Source: Escherichia coli (GTDB lineage: Bacteria; Pseudomonadota; Gammaproteobacteria; Enterobacterales; Enterobacteriaceae). From it: a stretch of 64,000 bases of DNA. The position numbers and the translations under genes are program-made. The stretch lies in assembly GCF_030013205.1 (NCBI RefSeq), contig NZ_CP122648.1; one strand, 5' to 3'. The notes under the pieces were generated by a model. The model was not told where the DNA came from. It did no database searches and was given only the letters and a program-made list of their open reading frames with translations. How positions within the stretch are numbered: position 1 is the first letter of the stretch; each line of letters begins with the position of its first letter. Shown piece by piece: positions 15,169 through 59,100 of this stretch.

Positions 15169-15198
15169 GCCGGATGCGACGTTTGCGCCGTATCCGGC
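15169..15198. repeat. REP-like palindromic unit after fucO
   Basis: gccggatgcgacgtttgcgccgtatccggc. Confidence 0.5.
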
Positions 15199-27628: not shown

Positions 27629-28969
27629 ATGAGTTCTCAATTTACGACGCCTGTTGTTACTGAAATGCAGGTCATCCCGGTGGCGGGCCATGACAGTATG
27701 CTGATGAATCTGAGTGGTGCACACGCACCGTTCTTCACGCGTAATATTGTGATTATCAAAGATAATTCTGGTCACACCGGCGTAGGGGAAATTCCCGGCG
27801 GCGAGAAAATCCGTAAAACGCTGGAAGATGCGATTCCGCTGGTGGTGGGTAAAACGCTGGGTGAATACAAAAACGTTCTGACGCTGGTGCGTAATACATT
27901 TGCCGATCGTGATGCCGGCGGGCGCGGTTTGCAGACATTTGACCTGCGGACCACTATTCATGTGGTTACCGGGATAGAAGCGGCAATGCTGGATCTGCTG
28001 GGGCAGCATCTGGGGGTTAACGTGGCATCCCTGCTGGGCGATGGTCAACAGCGTAGCGAAGTCGAAATGCTCGGTTATCTGTTCTTCGTCGGTAATCGCA
28101 AAGCCACACCGCTGCCGTATCAAAGCCAGCCGGATGATAAATGTGACTGGTATCGCCTGCGTCACGAAGAAGCGATGACGCCGGATGCGGTGGTGCGCCT
28201 GGCGGAAGCGGCATATGAAAAATATGGCTTCAACGATTTCAAACTGAAGGGCGGTGTACTGGCCGGGGAAGAAGAAGCAGAATCTATTGTGGCACTGGCG
28301 CAACGCTTCCCACAGGCGCGTATTACCCTCGATCCTAACGGTGCCTGGTCGCTGAACGAAGCGATTAAAATTGGTAAATACCTGAAAGGTTCGCTGGCTT
28401 ATGCAGAAGATCCGTGTGGTGCGGAGCAAGGTTTCTCCGGGCGTGAAGTGATGGCAGAGTTCCGTCGCGCGACTGGCCTGCCGACCGCAACCAATATGAT
28501 CGCCACCGACTGGCGGCAGATGGGCCATACGCTCTCCCTGCAATCCGTTGATATCCCGCTGGCGGATCCGCATTTCTGGACGATGCAAGGTTCGGTACGT
28601 GTGGCGCAAATGTGCCATGAATTTGGCCTGACCTGGGGTTCACACTCTAACAACCACTTCGATATTTCCCTGGCGATGTTTACCCATGTAGCCGCTGCTG
28701 CACCGGGTAAAATTACTGCTATTGATACGCACTGGATCTGGCAGGAAGGCAATCAGCGTCTGACCAAAGAACCGTTTGAGATCAAAGGCGGGCTGGTTCA
28801 GGTGCCGCAAAAACCAGGATTGGGCGTAGAAATCGATATGGATCAGGTGATGAAAGCCCACGAGCTGTATCAGAAACACGGGCTTGGCGCGCGTGACGAT
28901 GCGATGGGAATGCAGTACCTGATTCCTGGCTGGACGTTTGATAACAAGCGCCCGTGCATGGTGCGTTAA
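27629..28969 (+). CDS. gudD: D-glucarate dehydratase
   Basis: Start set at [10 protein letters not shown] (ATG 27629) 8 codons inside ORF-track start; enolase superfamily. Confidence 0.9.
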
Positions 28970-28971
28970 GA

Positions 28972-29017
28972 CAGTAATCTCAAACCGGCTCTTTCAGGAG
29001 CCGGTTTGAGATTACTG
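28972..29017. terminator. long stem-loop after gudD between convergent gudD and barA
   Basis: cagtaatctcaaaccggctc tttcag gagccggtttgagattactg, near-perfect inverted repeat. Confidence 0.45.
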
Positions 29018-29029
29018 ACGAAGTGGCTT

Positions 29030-29145
29030 ACGGGGACGGTTTTCCCCTCGCCCTTTCAAGGAGAGGACCGGGGGGAGGGTAATCATTCGCACTTGCGTTG
29101 GCCTGTTCCCCTCACCCTAACCCTCTCCCCGGAGGGGCGAGGGGA
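29030..29145. repeat. GC-rich imperfect palindromic intergenic element (BoxC-like)
   Basis: cccctcgccc...ggagaggaccggggggagggt / ccctcaccctaaccctctccccggaggggcgagggg; the two arms are reverse-complementary; generates the spurious ORF 29006..29362. Confidence 0.35.
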
Positions 29146-29208
29146 CTGTCTGTGCTGTTCCCAGCATTGGCATTGGACGGAACCTATTTTGACTCGACAA
29201 GACGTCCG

Positions 29209-31965
29209 TTACCCGAGAATTTTGCTGGCTTCGCGCGCTACATTATCCATCTCGTCCAACAGTTCCAGCAGCTCCGGCTCCAAATCTTCTTCTTTAGTAC
29301 CGCTACGTAGCTGTTGTTCGATCAGTTGGCAGAGATTCTTCATACGCGGCACACCGCTATAGCCGCAACTGCCATGCAGTTTATGAATCAAATCAACCAG
29401 GCCTTCCGGGTTTTCTCCAACCAGCTGTTCCTCAACTTTGTTGCGAACTTCAGGCAGGAAATCGAGTAACATTTGCAGCATATCGCGCGCTAAATCGGTT
29501 TTTCCTGCTGCCTGGCGTAGTGCCAGTTGCCAGTCGAGGGTCGCATTCGGGTTCACCACAATTTCGTTGACTTCGGGCGTCACGACGCGAGAGGAAATAC
29601 CGCTGCCAGGCTTGTAGCGCAACAGCAAATTATGCAATCGTTCTTCTTCAATCGGTTTCGCCAGATAATCGCTCATCCCTGCGCCAAGCAGCTTCTCTTT
29701 TTGCCCGGCCATTGCATGCGCCGTTACCGCGATAACCGGCGTTTGTTGCTGATGGGGGAGCTGGTGGATGAGTTCGCAGGCCCGAATACCGTCCATGTCC
29801 GGCATTTGAATATCCATTAAGATCAAATCGAACGGCATCTGTTTCGCCCGTTCAACCGCCTGATGCCCGCTATCGCAAAGTTCCACATGTTGCACCATAT
29901 CTTCCAGCAATGCGCCGATAAGTTTCAGGTTAGCGGGGTTGTCATCAACCGCCATGACTGTCATTGCCAGCTTACTTTCATCGGTTACAGGCAAAAGCGT
30001 GTTTTGTTTGTGATGACAAAATTCCGTCAGGGCAGGTAACAGGCGCGTAGGTGTTAATGGTTTCAGCAGACACGCGCCGATACCATCTTGCTTAAGTTTT
30101 TCAGCATTGACTTGTGCATGGCAAGGAAGTGCCAGCATCAGAAAATCGGTCATCGATACCGCTTTCGCTAATCGCTCATGTTGCATTGTTAGCGGCTCGC
30201 GGAAGGTCACCGCAATGCCTAATAACATCATGTCGTAATGCGCGGGAGGTAGCGCGGAGAACGTTGGGCTATAAACCACTTCCAGCGGCGTTTCACTTAA
30301 AATATCCAGCGTGCATTGCGCTGCTGCGGAGTTTGGTTCGACATAGGCCAGGCGCTTGCCGGCTAGGCACTGGGTGGATGGCCCTTCGATAATAATGTTC
30401 GGGTTCAGATCGAGATTAATGTGGAACCAGAAAGTTGAACCGCGATTCGGCTGGCTATGGAACGAAATATCGCCGCCCATTTCATTAACCAGTTTTTGTG
30501 TAATCACCAGCCCCAGCCCGGTGCCACCATGACGGCGGGAAATACTGGCATCAGCCTGTCGGAAGGCCTGGAATAAGCGCGATTGATCGCGTTCAGGAAT
30601 ACCAATGCCGGTATCCCGAATCTGCACTTCAATCTGAACTTTGGTATTACTCAGCGCACGTTTTTCTACCAGAATATCAATGTTGCCATTCTCGGTGAAT
30701 TTAATTGCATTCCCTACCAGGTTAGTGATGATTTGCTGTAATCGCAGTGGGTCGCCAATTACGTTATCGGGCACGTCGCTCTTAATATTGAGCGTCAGTT
30801 CCAGCCCTTTATCGTGAGAAGAATGTGCCAGCAGGGTAACGACTTCATCCAGCGTGCTGCGTAGTGGGAATGGAATACTTTCCAGAATCAGCTTACCTGC
30901 TTCCAGTTTCGAGAAGTCGAGAACATCATTAATAATTGCCAGCAAATTATTTGCCGAACGTTCAATCGTATTCAGGTGATCGCGCTGCGTTGGTGTTAAT
31001 TCTGTTTTCAGCGTCAGGCGGGTAAAGCCAATAACACCATTCAGTGGTGTACGCAGCTCGTGTGACATATTTGCCAGAAACTCGGATTTAATACGCGCCG
31101 CTTCCTGGGCGCGCTTTTTCGCCAGATCCAACTCAACGTTCTGAATTTCCATCTGCTCCAGCGTTTCACGCAGATCGGACGTCGCCTGGGCGATATTGTG
31201 TTGCATCTCTTCGTGATAAGCCGCCAGCGACATTGCCATCGAGTTGATACCGTTTTTCAGCATATCCAGCTCGCCGAGCATAAATCCTTCCACACGGCTG
31301 TCGAGTTGCCCGCGACGGATGCGGTCGACGGTATTCACCATATTGCGAATCGGACCGGTTACATCGCGCATTAAGCGCCAGCCAAAAATAAGCGCAATAC
31401 CGATACAAAACAGCATCATCACGCTGGAAATAAAGATCTCTTTATATTGCTGCAAGCGAACCGATTTAAGATCCAGCTCAAGCGCAATATATCCCAACAT
31501 ATTTTGACTATTTTTGGCATCGCTACTGGGCGATTCGTCGGGGGAGTAACTCTCAGAAATAATCGGCGTGCGGAGGATCATAATATCGCCGTCACGAGTG
31601 ACAGTGAGCTGGCGAGGAAACGGCACGTTGCTGCCGAGCTGCATTGATGAGGGATCAAGATGAAAATTGGAGGTGACAAAGAGTCGGTTATTTTCATCAT
31701 AAACCGAAATCGCGCGAACAATATCGGAATGGCGACGATGCAGTACGCTTATTAACTGACCGATAGATTCGCGATTTTGCAGGCTCATGCCATATTCAGT
31801 AGAAACTGCAAGCGGCTCAATAATGCTGGCTCCGGCATCTTCCAGTTGACGCTGCAAGTCGTTATAGCGATGCACAACGAAAAAGATACTCAGCAATAAA
31901 CCAATAAGGACGGTCGGTGCCAGGATCAGAATCATCATGCGTGCGCGCAGGCTGTAGTTGGTCAT
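29209..31965 (-). CDS. barA: hybrid sensor histidine kinase BarA (BarA/UvrY two-component system)
   Basis: 918-aa ORF with HAMP, HisKA (SHELRTPLN), HATPase, receiver and HPt regions. Confidence 0.95.
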
Positions 31966-32021
31966 GGAGTTCCGTTATGGGACAATTAAGGTCACACTGT
32001 TAAATTGAGAAAGTCTCGCCA

Positions 32022-33323
32022 ATGGCGCAATTCTACTCTGCAAAACGACGCACGACGACGCGTCAGATCATAACTGTTTCAGTCAACGACCTCGACTCTT
32101 TTGGTCAGGGCGTGGCGCGACATAACGGCAAAGCGTTATTTATTCCTGGATTACTGCCACAGGAAAACGCGGAAGTTACTGTTACTGAAGATAAAAAACA
32201 GTACGCTCGCGCTAAAGTCGTGCGCCGGTTAAGCGATAACCCGGAACGCGAAACGCCACGCTGCCCTCATTTTGGCGTATGCGGCGGCTGTCAGCAACAA
32301 CACGCCAGCGTGGATTTACAGCAGCGAAGCAAAAGTGCGGCACTCGCCCGATTAATGAAACACGAAGTCTCTGAAGTGATCGCCGATGTTCCCTGGGGCT
32401 ATCGCCGTCGCGCGCGTTTAAGTTTGAACTACTTACCGAAAACACAGCAACTTCAGATGGGCTTTCGCAAAGCGGGCTCCAGTGACATTGTCGACGTTAA
32501 ACAATGCCCCATTTTAGTGCCCCAACTTGAAGCATTGCTGCCCAAAGTCAGGGCATGCCTGGGCAGCTTACAAGCTATGCGCCATCTTGGTCATGTTGAA
32601 CTGGTACAGGCAACCAGCGGCACGCTGATGATTTTGCGCCATACCGCACCGCTAAGTTCGGCAGATCGCGAAAAACTGGAACGCTTTTCGCATTCTGAAG
32701 GACTGGATCTGTATCTCGCCCCCGATAGTGAGATACTCGAAACCGTCTCTGGTGAGATGCCCTGGTATGACTCAAACGGGTTGCGCTTAACTTTTAGCCC
32801 GCGCGATTTTATTCAGGTCAATGCGGGTGTGAACCAAAAAATGGTAGCGCGTGCGTTGGAATGGCTGGATGTGCAACCTGAAGATCGCGTACTGGATCTG
32901 TTCTGCGGTATGGGCAACTTTACACTGCCATTGGCGACACAAGCTGCCAGTGTGGTCGGTGTAGAAGGTGTTCCGGCGCTGGTGGAAAAAGGCCAGCAGA
33001 ATGCGCGTCTTAATGGCTTACAGAATGTGACGTTTTATCACGAAAATCTTGAAGAAGATGTCACAAAGCAGCCGTGGGCGAAAAACGGCTTCGATAAAGT
33101 GTTGCTGGACCCGGCGCGAGCAGGTGCCGCAGGTGTTATGCAGCAAATTATAAAACTGGAACCTATTCGTATAGTTTATGTATCCTGTAACCCTGCAACG
33201 CTGGCTCGGGATAGCGAAGCGTTATTAAAAGCAGGATATACCATTGCGCGACTGGCGATGCTGGATATGTTCCCACACACGGGACATCTGGAATCGATGG
33301 TACTTTTCTCGCGCGTTAAATAG
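32022..33323 (+). CDS. rlmD: 23S rRNA m5U1939 methyltransferase (RumA)
   Basis: 433-aa ORF with TRAM domain, 4-Cys cluster and SAM-MTase fold. Confidence 0.9.
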
Positions 33324-33370
33324 TTGCGATTTGCCGATTTCGGCAGGTCTGGTCCCTAAAGGAGAGGACG

Positions 33371-35605
33371 ATGGTTGCGGTAAGAAGTGCACATATCAAT
33401 AAGGCTGGTGAATTTGATCCGGAAAAATGGATCGCAAGTCTGGGTATTACCAGCCAGAAGTCGTGTGAGTGCTTAGCCGAAACCTGGGCGTATTGTCTGC
33501 AACAGACGCAGGGGCATCCGGATGCCAGTCTGTTATTGTGGCGTGGTGTTGAGATGGTGGAGATCCTCTCGACATTAAGTATGGACATTGACACGCTGCG
33601 GGCGGCGCTGCTGTTCCCTCTGGCGGATGCCAACGTAGTCAGCGAAGATGTGCTGCGTGAGAGCGTCGGTAAGTCGGTCGTTAACCTTATTCACGGCGTG
33701 CGTGATATGGCGGCGATCCGCCAGCTGAAAGCGACGCATACCGATTCTGTTTCCTCCGAGCAGGTCGATAACGTTCGCCGGATGTTATTGGCGATGGTCG
33801 ATGATTTTCGCTGCGTGGTCATCAAACTGGCAGAGCGTATTGCTCATCTGCGCGAAGTAAAAGACGCGCCGGAAGATGAACGCGTACTGGCGGCAAAAGA
33901 GTGCACCAATATCTACGCGCCGTTGGCGAACCGTCTTGGGATTGGACAACTGAAATGGGAGCTGGAAGATTACTGCTTCCGTTATCTCCACCCGACCGAA
34001 TACAAACGCATCGCAAAACTGCTGCATGAACGCCGTCTCGACCGCGAACACTATATCGAAGAGTTTGTCGGCCATCTGCGCGCTGAGATGAAAGCTGAAG
34101 GCGTTAAAGCTGAAGTGTATGGTCGACCGAAACACATCTACAGCATCTGGCGCAAAATGCAGAAAAAGAACCTCGCCTTCGATGAGCTGTTTGATGTGCG
34201 TGCGGTACGTATTGTCGCCGAGCGTTTACAGGATTGTTATGCCGCACTGGGGATAGTGCACACTCACTATCGCCACCTGCCGGATGAGTTTGACGATTAC
34301 GTCGCTAACCCGAAACCAAACGGTTATCAGTCTATTCATACCGTGGTTCTGGGACCAGGTGGCAAAACCGTTGAGATCCAAATCCGCACTAAACAGATGC
34401 ATGAAGATGCAGAGTTGGGTGTTGCTGCGCACTGGAAATATAAAGAGGGCGCGGCAGCTGGCGGCGCACGTTCGGGACATGAAGACCGGATTGCCTGGCT
34501 GCGTAAACTGATTGCGTGGCAGGAAGAGATGGCTGATTCCGGCGAAATGCTCGACGAAGTACGTAGCCAGGTCTTTGACGACCGGGTGTACGTCTTTACG
34601 CCGAAAGGTGATGTCGTTGATTTGCCTGCGGGATCAACACCGCTGGACTTCGCTTACCACATCCACAGTGATGTCGGACACCGCTGCATCGGGGCAAAAA
34701 TAGGCGGGCGCATTGTGCCGTTCACCTACCAGCTGCAGATGGGCGACCAGATTGAAATTATTACCCAGAAACAGCCGAACCCCAGCCGTGACTGGTTAAA
34801 CCCAAACCTCGGTTACGTCACAACCAGCCGTGGGCGTTCGAAAATTCACGCCTGGTTCCGTAAACAGGACCGTGACAAAAACATTCTGGCTGGGCGGCAA
34901 ATCCTTGACGACGAGCTGGAACATCTGGGGATCAGCCTGAAAGAAGCAGAAAAACATCTGCTGCCGCGTTACAACTTCAATGATGTCGACGAGTTGCTGG
35001 CGGCAATTGGTGGCGGGGATATCCGTCTCAATCAGATGGTGAACTTCCTGCAATCGCAATTTAATAAGCCGAGTGCCGAAGAGCAGGATGCCGCCGCACT
35101 GAAGCAACTTCAGCAAAAAAGCTATACGCCGCAAAACCGCAGTAAAGATAACGGTCGTGTGGTGGTTGAAGGTGTCGGTAACCTGATGCACCACATCGCG
35201 CGCTGCTGCCAGCCGATTCCTGGAGATGAGATTGTCGGCTTCATTACCCAGGGACGCGGTATTTCAGTACACCGCGCCGATTGCGAACAACTGGCGGAAC
35301 TGCGCTCCCATGCGCCAGAACGTATTGTTGATGCGGTATGGGGCGAGAGCTACTCCGCCGGATATTCGCTGGTGGTCCGCGTGGTGGCTAATGATCGTAG
35401 TGGGTTGTTACGTGATATCACGACCATTCTCGCCAACGAGAAGGTGAACGTACTTGGCGTTGCCAGCCGTAGCGACACCAAACAGCAGCTGGCGACCATC
35501 GACATGACCATTGAGATTTACAACCTGCAAGTGCTGGGCCGCGTGCTGGGTAAACTCAACCAGGTGCCGGATGTTATCGACGCGCGTCGGTTGCACGGGA
35601 GTTAG
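33371..35605 (+). CDS. relA: GTP pyrophosphokinase, (p)ppGpp synthetase I
   Basis: 744-aa RelA/SpoT-family ORF. Confidence 0.95.
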   Translation: MVAVRSAHINKAGEFDPEKWIASLGITSQKSCECLAETWAYCLQQTQGHPDASLLLWRGVEMVEILSTLSMDIDTLRAALLFPLADANVVSEDVLRESVGKSVVNLIHGVRDMAAIRQLKATHTDSVSSEQVDNVRRMLLAMVDDFRCVVIKLAERIAHLREVKDAPEDERVLAAKECTNIYAPLANRLGIGQLKWELEDYCFRYLHPTEYKRIAKLLHERRLDREHYIEEFVGHLRAEMKAEGVKAEVYGRPKHIYSIWRKMQKKNLAFDELFDVRAVRIVAERLQDCYAALGIVHTHYRHLPDEFDDYVANPKPNGYQSIHTVVLGPGGKTVEIQIRTKQMHEDAELGVAAHWKYKEGAAAGGARSGHEDRIAWLRKLIAWQEEMADSGEMLDEVRSQVFDDRVYVFTPKGDVVDLPAGSTPLDFAYHIHSDVGHRCIGAKIGGRIVPFTYQLQMGDQIEIITQKQPNPSRDWLNPNLGYVTTSRGRSKIHAWFRKQDRDKNILAGRQILDDELEHLGISLKEAEKHLLPRYNFNDVDELLAAIGGGDIRLNQMVNFLQSQFNKPSAEEQDAAALKQLQQKSYTPQNRSKDNGRVVVEGVGNLMHHIARCCQPIPGDEIVGFITQGRGISVHRADCEQLAELRSHAPERIVDAVWGESYSAGYSLVVRVVANDRSGLLRDITTILANEKVNVLGVASRSDTKQQLATIDMTIEIYNLQVLGRVLGKLNQVPDVIDARRLHGS

Positions 35606-35608
35606 TCT

Positions 35609-35650
35609 TACATAGCTGGATATGGCGTCAGCCGTATCCAGCGATATCTT
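35609..35650 (+). terminator. stem-loop after relA
   Basis: gctggatatggc gtca gccgtatccagc then T-containing tail; occupies the short relA-mazG spacer. Confidence 0.4.
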
Positions 35651-35700
35651 TTACTCGAAGGTATTACACCTGACAGACCCGCAATTTTCAGGACATTCTA

Positions 35701-36492
35701 ATGAATCAAATCGACCGTTTGCTCACTATTATGCAGCGCCTGCGCGATCCGGAAAACGGCTGCCCGTGGGATAAAGAGCAGACATTTGCCACCATTGCGC
35801 CTTACACCCTTGAAGAAACCTACGAGGTGCTGGACGCCATCGCCCGTGAAGATTTTGACGATCTTCGCGGTGAACTGGGCGATCTGCTGTTCCAGGTGGT
35901 GTTTTACGCACAAATGGCCCAGGAAGAAGGGCGCTTTGACTTTAATGATATTTGCGCCGCGATCAGCGATAAATTAGAACGTCGCCATCCGCATGTTTTT
36001 GCTGACAGTTCTGCCGAAAACAGTAGTGAAGTGCTTGCCCGTTGGGAGCAAATCAAAACCGAAGAGCGCGCGCAGAAAGCGCAGCATTCGGCGCTGGACG
36101 ATATTCCTCGTAGTTTACCGGCTTTAATGCGTGCGCAAAAAATCCAGAAACGTTGCGCCAACGTTGGTTTTGACTGGACGACGCTTGGTCCGGTAGTCGA
36201 TAAAGTCTACGAAGAGATCGACGAGGTGATGTACGAGGCACGGCAGGCTGTTATCGACCAGGCTAAACTGGAGGAGGAAATGGGCGACCTGCTGTTTGCC
36301 ACGGTCAATCTGGCTCGTCATTTAGGGACAAAAGCGGAAATCGCATTGCAAAAAGCGAACGAAAAATTCGAGCGTCGTTTTCGCGAAGTGGAGCGTATTG
36401 TTGCCGCGCGTGGACTGGAAATGACAGGTGTTGACCTCGAAACAATGGAAGAAGTCTGGCAACAGGTAAAACGGCAGGAAATTGATCTCTAA
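35701..36492 (+). CDS. mazG: nucleoside triphosphate pyrophosphohydrolase MazG
   Basis: 263-aa ORF with tandem MazG motifs (EExYE...). Confidence 0.9.
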   Translation: MNQIDRLLTIMQRLRDPENGCPWDKEQTFATIAPYTLEETYEVLDAIAREDFDDLRGELGDLLFQVVFYAQMAQEEGRFDFNDICAAISDKLERRHPHVFADSSAENSSEVLARWEQIKTEERAQKAQHSALDDIPRSLPALMRAQKIQKRCANVGFDWTTLGPVVDKVYEEIDEVMYEARQAVIDQAKLEEEMGDLLFATVNLARHLGTKAEIALQKANEKFERRFREVERIVAARGLEMTGVDLETMEEVWQQVKRQEIDL

Positions 36493-36627
36493 GGGAATTA
36501 CGTGGTCAAGCGCGATTTGTGTCATTTTTTAAATGACAAGCGCTTGATTTGCGTCAAAAACATTTACCCCAAAGGGGCTATTTTCTCACTCCTGATTTCA
36601 ATAGTGCGCTGGCGAAGAGGAGGGATA

Positions 36628-38357
<1,730 letters not shown>

Positions 38358-38429
38358 GTAAAAAAGTTAGAACGGCAACGCGTACCCTGGGTACGCGTTG
38401 TTTGTCTGGAGTTTCAGTTTAACTAGTGA

Positions 38430-39743
<1,314 letters not shown>

Positions 39744-39768
39744 GTCTGACTTTATCTGATTTAAAAAT

Positions 39769-39794
39769 GCCAGCCTTCGGGCTGGCATTTTTTA
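39769..39794. terminator. intrinsic terminator after eno, likely bidirectional (also ends ygcG)
   Basis: gccagccttcgggctggc hairpin followed by TTTTTT on + strand and preceded by AAAAA. Confidence 0.7.
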
Positions 39795-39802
39795 TGGTTG
39801 AG

Positions 39803-58849: not shown

Positions 58850-58954
58850 ATGGACAAAAGCCCCAGGCGATATTTCTATCAACCTGAGGCCAGCGTTCGA
58901 ACCCAAACAACTCGAATGTTAGTCTCTTCTTTGCAGGGAGGCAAGACATGCTGA
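58850..58954 (+). CDS. mok-like 34-codon upstream reading frame coupled to the hok-like ORF (hypothetical)
   Basis: ATG 58850; stop TGA 58952-58954 lies just after the hok-like ATG (58948). Confidence 0.3.
58859..58909 (-). ncRNA. candidate Sok-like antisense RNA (hypothetical)
   Basis: On - strand: TTGCCT -35 (58939-58944), 17-bp spacer, TAACAT -10 (58916-58921), then a stem-loop (gccccagg / cctgaggc) followed by TTTTG; antisense to the mok-like frame. Confidence 0.25.
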
Positions 58955-59100
58955 CAAAATATGCCCTTGTGGCAATCATAGTGCTGTGTTTTACAGTACT
59001 GGGATTCACGCTGATGGTAGGCGACTCGTTGTGTGAGTTGAGTATCAGAGAACGTGGTATGGAGTTTAAGGCAGTTCTCGCTTACGAATCGAAGAAGTAG
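58948..59100 (+). CDS. Hok/Gef-family type I toxin, 50 aa (hokX-like position between cysH and cas3)
   Basis: [50 protein letters not shown]: hydrophobic N-terminus, SLCE(L/I) and AxxAYES motifs shared with Hok/Gef; AGGGAGG RBS 6 nt upstream; GC hairpin cgcgggg/ccccgcg just downstream; below the ORF-track size cut-off. Confidence 0.75.

Follow-up and report, generated by a model that had tools for sequence, protein, structure and literature searches.

The 95 bp that separate relA from mazG in this Escherichia coli genome are best read as the ancestral, unoccupied allele of the mazEF insertion site, a reading to which we give a probability of about 0.9. According to it the spacer carries a hairpin derived from a repetitive extragenic palindrome (REP), a mazEF cassette replaced that REP in K-12-type genomes, and the allele present here would never have received the cassette. 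The empty relA–mazG site is an ordinary, lineage-typical polymorphism that has already been described: in many mazEF-less strains, UTI89 among them, relA and mazG form an undisturbed bicistronic operon, and the insertion of mazEF took place independently of function (Fraikin, Goormaghtigh & Van Melderen 2020, PMC7167474).

The relA–mazG junction in the window

The window referred to here is the whole 64-kb stretch of DNA that was analysed. Its annotation places rlmD upstream of relA–mazG, and pyrG and eno downstream. The relA and mazG genes are adjacent on the same (+) strand with neither a gene nor a promoter-like site between them, and their ends agree with the RefSeq annotation of strains K_EC180 and ETEC4079. 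The features of the junction are as follows.

33371-35605, + strand: relA (GTP diphosphokinase), 744 aa (ORF list; NCBIfam NF008124 equivalog, 1678 bits; RefSeq annotation of ETEC4079 and K_EC180)
35603-35605, + strand: relA stop codon, TAG
35606-35700, + strand: relA–mazG spacer, 95 bp, putatively the mazEF insertion site in its ancestral, unoccupied state (K-12 alignment; E. coli junction count; homologous spacers elsewhere)
35606-35660, + strand: segment of about 55 nt missing from K-12-type (mazEF+) genomes (K-12 alignment; right boundary fuzzy, 35643-35666)
35615-35642, + strand: putatively REP-derived hairpin GCTGGATATGGC-GTCA-GCCGTATCCAGC, followed by GATATCTTTT (terminator-like scan, fold, REP alignment)
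35667-35700, + strand: mazG leader, common to mazEF+ and mazEF- genomes (alignments, direct reading)
35701-36492, + strand: mazG (nucleoside triphosphate pyrophosphohydrolase), 263 aa (TIGR00444, 419 bits; NF007113, 370 bits; RefSeq WP_001071643.1)

The corresponding interval in K-12 is 731 bp long, with mazE and mazF inside it. A first-pass annotation of this DNA claimed that the two genes are missing between relA and mazG, and this is borne out; the gap of 95 bp is exact, and it is too short for a toxin ORF of MazF size. Searches of the 64-kb window by tblastn find no homologue of the toxin MazF, a PemK-fold endoribonuclease (K-12 MazF query; best E = 3.1), and none of MazE, the AbrB/SpoVT-type antitoxin whose ORF lies immediately ahead of the toxin ORF and overlaps it (K-12 MazE query; best E = 3.7), and alignment to K-12 shows no counterpart in the window of the mazE promoter/operator palindrome (K-12 AAATTTGCTCGTATCTACAATGTAGATTGA...). 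The description of the gap as holding just a terminator-like hairpin is also accurate, in that the spacer consists of one hairpin with a 12-bp stem and the mazG leader.

Over positions 28000-44000 the window has 100% identity to ETEC4079, an ETEC strain from pig, and 99.5% identity to several porcine strains, of O139:H1 and other types; one of these is K_EC180, for which a literature search gave no result. O139:H1-ST1 has been typed as Clermont group E, the group to which O157 also belongs (PMC6230658), and the phylogroup of the window is assigned indirectly, from the 99.5% identity to O139:H1 together with this published typing of O139:H1-ST1.

Comparison with K-12 and with outgroup genomes

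Alignment of the window with K-12 places the left breakpoint immediately past the relA stop codon and the right one some 45-60 nt ahead of the mazG ATG. Approximately 55 nt, hairpin included, are present in the window alone, and approximately 690 nt are present in K-12 alone. The K-12-type replacement of about 690 bp runs from the mazE promoter/operator through mazE and mazF to a point about 45 nt beyond mazF. Its right edge is set at some 45 nt ahead of the mazG start codon by the K-12-type sequence that E. albertii keeps downstream of mazF. The relA–mazE–mazF–mazG (chpA) locus of K-12 thus resembles the window in its relA end, its mazG start and a 29-nt stretch of the leader (CACCTGACAGACCCGCAATTTTCAGGACA), all of which are identical, but differs in carrying the mazE promoter/operator, mazE and mazF over 731 bp, and in having no REP hairpin. 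A Shine-Dalgarno sequence, AGGA, is located at 35690-35693, 7 nt ahead of the mazG ATG. Because a deletion cannot generate the hairpin, the two alleles are related by replacement and not by simple loss.

The direction of this replacement is indicated by the outgroups. A survey of the mazG locus in 80 Enterobacterales species found MazE/MazF between relA and mazG in none of the 80 loci, the gaps being mostly 43-170 bp. The same 95-bp spacer with its hairpin is present in two Escherichia lineages other than E. coli, whose flanks are about 92% (L003) and about 95-96% (L004) identical to those of E. coli. The spacer of Citrobacter gillenii has the same length, 95 bp, and can be aligned with that of the window from one end to the other, with a canonical REP lying over the window hairpin. 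The roughly 55 nt that K-12 lacks can be aligned in full with the relA–mazG spacers of Citrobacter, Klebsiella and Salmonella, which contain REPs. Since the spacer is homologous to those of the outgroups, and 0/80 of the surveyed loci contain mazEF, we infer that it represents the ancestral unoccupied site.

The composition of the K-12-type cassette (promoter/operator, mazE and mazF, with no terminator) matches that of published toxin-antitoxin (TA) cassettes that move horizontally, in which a promoter/operator is present and a terminator is absent (PMC5120126). Relatives of mazEF with 65-69% DNA identity are carried on conjugative plasmids of Klebsiella, Providencia and Proteus, and these fit a mobile origin of the cassette. 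A near-identical (99%) match listed as a plasmid in PLSDB, NZ_OL790696.1, is really a 4.8-Mb E. coli chromosome and was disregarded.

Probable REP ancestry of the hairpin

The hairpin begins 10 nt past the relA stop codon and spans 28 nt (35615-35642), with 12 base pairs, of which 7 are G-C, and a 4-nt loop. The tail that follows, GATATCTTTT, contains only four consecutive T residues, and these come after a 6-nt spacer. The hairpin passes a simple terminator scan, although the same scan yields 0.7 sites per shuffle by chance; the 110-nt region around it folds at -37 kcal/mol (z = -4.7 relative to shuffles). The stem is kept at 12/12 pairs in eight Escherichia sequences despite five substitutions, one of which is compensatory (T-A to C-G). 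An Rfam scan of 35300-36000 at E <= 1 gives no match, and the hairpin thus does not belong to a curated RNA family.

On the strength of its sequence and position we regard the spacer hairpin as a decayed REP. REP elements are imperfect palindromes of about 30-35 nt that lie outside genes, just past a 3' end, and the 28-nt palindrome of the spacer is of this kind; it aligns with the canonical REPs that Citrobacter and Klebsiella have in this place, GTAGGCCGGATAAGGCG...CCGCCATCCGGC. Its core, GCYGGATANGGCG, is common to the canonical REP at 15186, giving two matches in the window where 0.04 are expected. The REP/BIME sequences of Citrobacter, Klebsiella and Salmonella share with it their location directly after the relA stop codon and the core GCYGGATA..GGCG/…ATCCRGC. 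The Escherichia hairpin nonetheless departs from the usual REP in having an ATAG and not a GTAG head, and a perfect 12-bp stem where that of a REP is mismatched; the other genera also have two or three REPs in the spacer, whereas Escherichia has one clear hairpin. Among the Escherichia sequences the GTAG head is found only in lineage L003, the E. coli hairpin having ATAG. The canonical REP element elsewhere in the window (GCCGGATACGGCG...CGCATCCGGCA) is at 15186-15198 on the - strand, and its core is the same as that of the relA–mazG hairpin.

Distribution of the empty site in E. coli

The distribution of the two alleles was scored in 5,426 complete E. coli genomes, with a junction query of 59 nt for the empty site, and with the cassette counted as present at 80% or more of the K-12 cassette. 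The empty junction occurs in 1,006 of the genomes (18.5%), CFT073 included, and the K-12 cassette in 4,416 (~81%). The idea that the junction might mark a notable deletion is not sustained, and the junction is lineage-typical, being shared by these 1,006 genomes and two further Escherichia lineages, with homologous counterparts in other genera.

The mazEF-less strains UTI89 and CFT073, both of phylogroup B2, are like the window in the 95-bp spacer, the hairpin and the mazG leader. CFT073 is 100% identical to the 59-nt junction query over query bases 3-59. CFT073 differs in its relA stop codon, which is TAA instead of the TAG of the window, and in small changes in the last 25 nt before mazG. 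Its flanking genes are about 98% identical to those of the window, so the window represents a different lineage, one related to pig ETEC and O139:H1 strains and not to B2. The reference state for this locus is the empty site and not the K-12 arrangement. As mazEF is an accessory cassette, the physiology ascribed to it (RNA cleavage under stress, a proposed programmed cell death, defence against phage) should not be taken for granted in this pig-associated lineage.

Probable exchange of alleles between lineages

The state of the site does not follow the flanking genes. The mazEF+ strain AHB5 has a MazG protein identical to that of the window (WP_001071643.1), with mazG DNA that is 99.5% identical, and the mazEF+ strain PMV-1 has a mazG that is 99.7% identical to that of mazEF- CFT073. 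Strain 2017-02-2CC combines a K-12-type MazG protein with an empty, divergent junction resembling that of the non-coli Escherichia lineage L004. Because cassette state is decoupled from flank haplotype in this way, both alleles have evidently been carried around by homologous recombination in the conserved flanks.

With alleles exchanged by recombination, the ancestors of the window lineage may never have been mazEF+, or may have been and then have regained the empty allele. A possible scenario, but one we consider unlikely, is that the lineage once carried mazEF and lost the cassette through homologous recombination in the relA and mazG flanks, which imported an empty allele of the ancestral type. 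The decoupling of flank haplotype and cassette state in AHB5, PMV-1 and 2017-02-2CC is compatible with such an import, as is the presence of mazEF in O157, which is typed, like O139:H1, as Clermont group E (PMC6230658). However, no single empty-site donor lineage stands out as markedly closest to the window in the relA 3' end and mazG, and the same mosaic would arise equally from the cassette moving into lineages. Under an import the allele itself would still be ancestral, but the history of the strain would be one of loss and not of never having acquired mazEF.

A mazEF remnant in E. albertii and the case for deletion

The relA–mazG spacer of E. albertii NBRC 107761 (locus L005:3740-4000) is 261 bp long and contains a remnant of the cassette. 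The remnant matches the mazE operator at 27/30 nt, the 3' codons of mazF at 15/15 and the K-12-type spacer between mazF and mazG at 68/74. REP elements fill the middle of the spacer, and a direct repeat, AACTCA, flanks a small internal deletion in the remnant. These pieces imply that mazEF once sat between relA and mazG in E. albertii, through either an old insertion or transfer between species. As E. albertii is an outgroup to E. coli, its remnant must be counted against an ancestral empty site: the cassette is either old or has been exchanged between species, and the equation of empty with ancestral is not readable from a simple species tree. Although E. albertii and the window are both without a functional mazEF at this locus, E. 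albertii has a true loss scar, whereas the window would have an allele that was never occupied.

E. albertii demonstrates decay of the cassette in place, and the K-12-type order is that of the E. coli majority (4,416/5,426 genomes). Both observations would favour a deletion in situ, with mazEF excised from this DNA molecule, for example between short direct repeats, and the 95 bp left as a scar. We consider this very improbable, since some 55 nt at the junction, including the 28-nt hairpin, do not exist in mazEF+ genomes and cannot be created by a deletion, and the junction bases are homologous to the spacers of genera that never had mazEF here. Moreover, the window, unlike E. albertii, retains nothing of the mazE operator, of mazE and mazF themselves or of the K-12-type spacer between mazF and mazG. 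A search for a deletion scar or short direct repeats yields nothing relevant at the window junction, which consists of non-homologous replacement sequence. With a hairpin that mazEF+ genomes do not have and no cassette remnant, the alignment in practice refutes a scar. The first-pass annotation had left it that mazEF was either deleted or never acquired; the second alternative is favoured, as a statement about this allele, and the first, in the sense of a deletion in situ, is rejected by the alignment.

Second-site copies

It is scarcely credible that a K-12-type mazEF module has instead been relocated to another place on the chromosome or to a plasmid of this strain. TA modules are mobile and plasmid-borne mazEF relatives exist, but nothing direct points to relocation, and the genome counts argue against it. 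The 1,006 empty and 4,416 filled sites add to 5,422, the exact number of genomes that hold the relA–mazG region, so the two states are mutually exclusive; there is no room for a second-site copy in the empty-site genomes, and K-12-type copies at other sites in them are very unlikely. The K-12 cassette gives 4,467 megablast matches, every one of them chromosomal, with essentially one per genome. Further, the window contains no MazE or MazF homologue, and in the near-identical K_EC180 the paralogous chpSB is likewise missing from its canonical place between ppa and ytfP.

We note that the ppa–ytfP spacer of K_EC180 (L094:38168-38546), from which the chpS–chpB module is absent, contains a weak ChpB-like trace on the correct strand (50% over 28 aa, E = 0.002), which suggests decay of chpSB at this site. 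The chpSB module is present in only 3,086 of the 5,426 E. coli genomes.

Expression of relA and mazG

In K-12, mazG is co-transcribed with the autoregulated mazEF genes (Gross et al. 2006, as cited in PMC5120126). A simple scan of 35300-36000 in the window finds no sigma-70-like promoter on either strand, and since there is none in or near the spacer, relA and mazG are predicted to be co-transcribed, with transcripts that start at the relA promoters running through the hairpin into mazG. Such a REP-type hairpin, with its weak U-tract, would probably act as a leaky or partial terminator, or as a 3'-exonuclease barrier that stabilises the relA mRNA. The expression of mazG would then follow relA transcription instead of MazE/MazF autoregulation, and in empty-site strains generally it is probably tied directly to the transcription of relA.

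Other insertions at relA–mazG

Several Enterobacterales have other genes in the same spacer. A parDE system is located there in Salmonella (PMC7167474), and we note a parDE pair in Superficieibacter sp. 1612_C1 (L018:3174-3786), identified as ParD (TIGR02606) and ParE (PF05016). The spacer of Buttiauxella agrestis (L042:2341-3928) contains genes for Hcp/TssD, a DUF4225 protein and a 109-aa membrane protein, and that of S. electus (L016:3566-3904) contains an orphan homologue of the Buttiauxella 109-aa membrane protein (29% identity, E = 3e-7). The relA–mazG spacer looks like a hotspot for toxin/antidote modules. That the REP-bearing spacer is a recurrent landing pad for toxin/antidote cassettes across the Enterobacterales is a speculative extension of this that we regard as doubtful. 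If insertion does target the REP hairpin, for instance through recombination associated with REPs, the window would carry an intact target in its empty allele, and comparison of empty and filled sites could reveal how chromosomal TA cassettes integrate. Set side by side, the empty, filled and decayed sites yield the exact boundaries of the cassette, and may help in the study of TA module integration.

Among the various other observations at this locus, relA of K-12 MC1000 (L002:36-3606) is split by an IS2 insertion, apparently the classical relA1 allele, which has no bearing on the empty site.

Elsewhere in the window there is a small type I-E-like CRISPR array at 41974-42252, between queE and ygcE, with five repeats of GAGTTCCCCGCGCCAGCGGGGATAAACCG at a 61-nt period; it was missed by Tandem Repeats Finder and shown by a separate repeat search. 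The O139:H1 and K_EC180 relatives are about 121 bp longer than the window across 28000-44000, and two more CRISPR repeat-spacer units would fit this difference. In the annotation of ETEC4079, ygcG (window ~39803-40675) is a pseudogene with an internal stop, and a Hok/Gef family toxin gene (~58948-59100) lies just upstream of cas3 (from ~59295).
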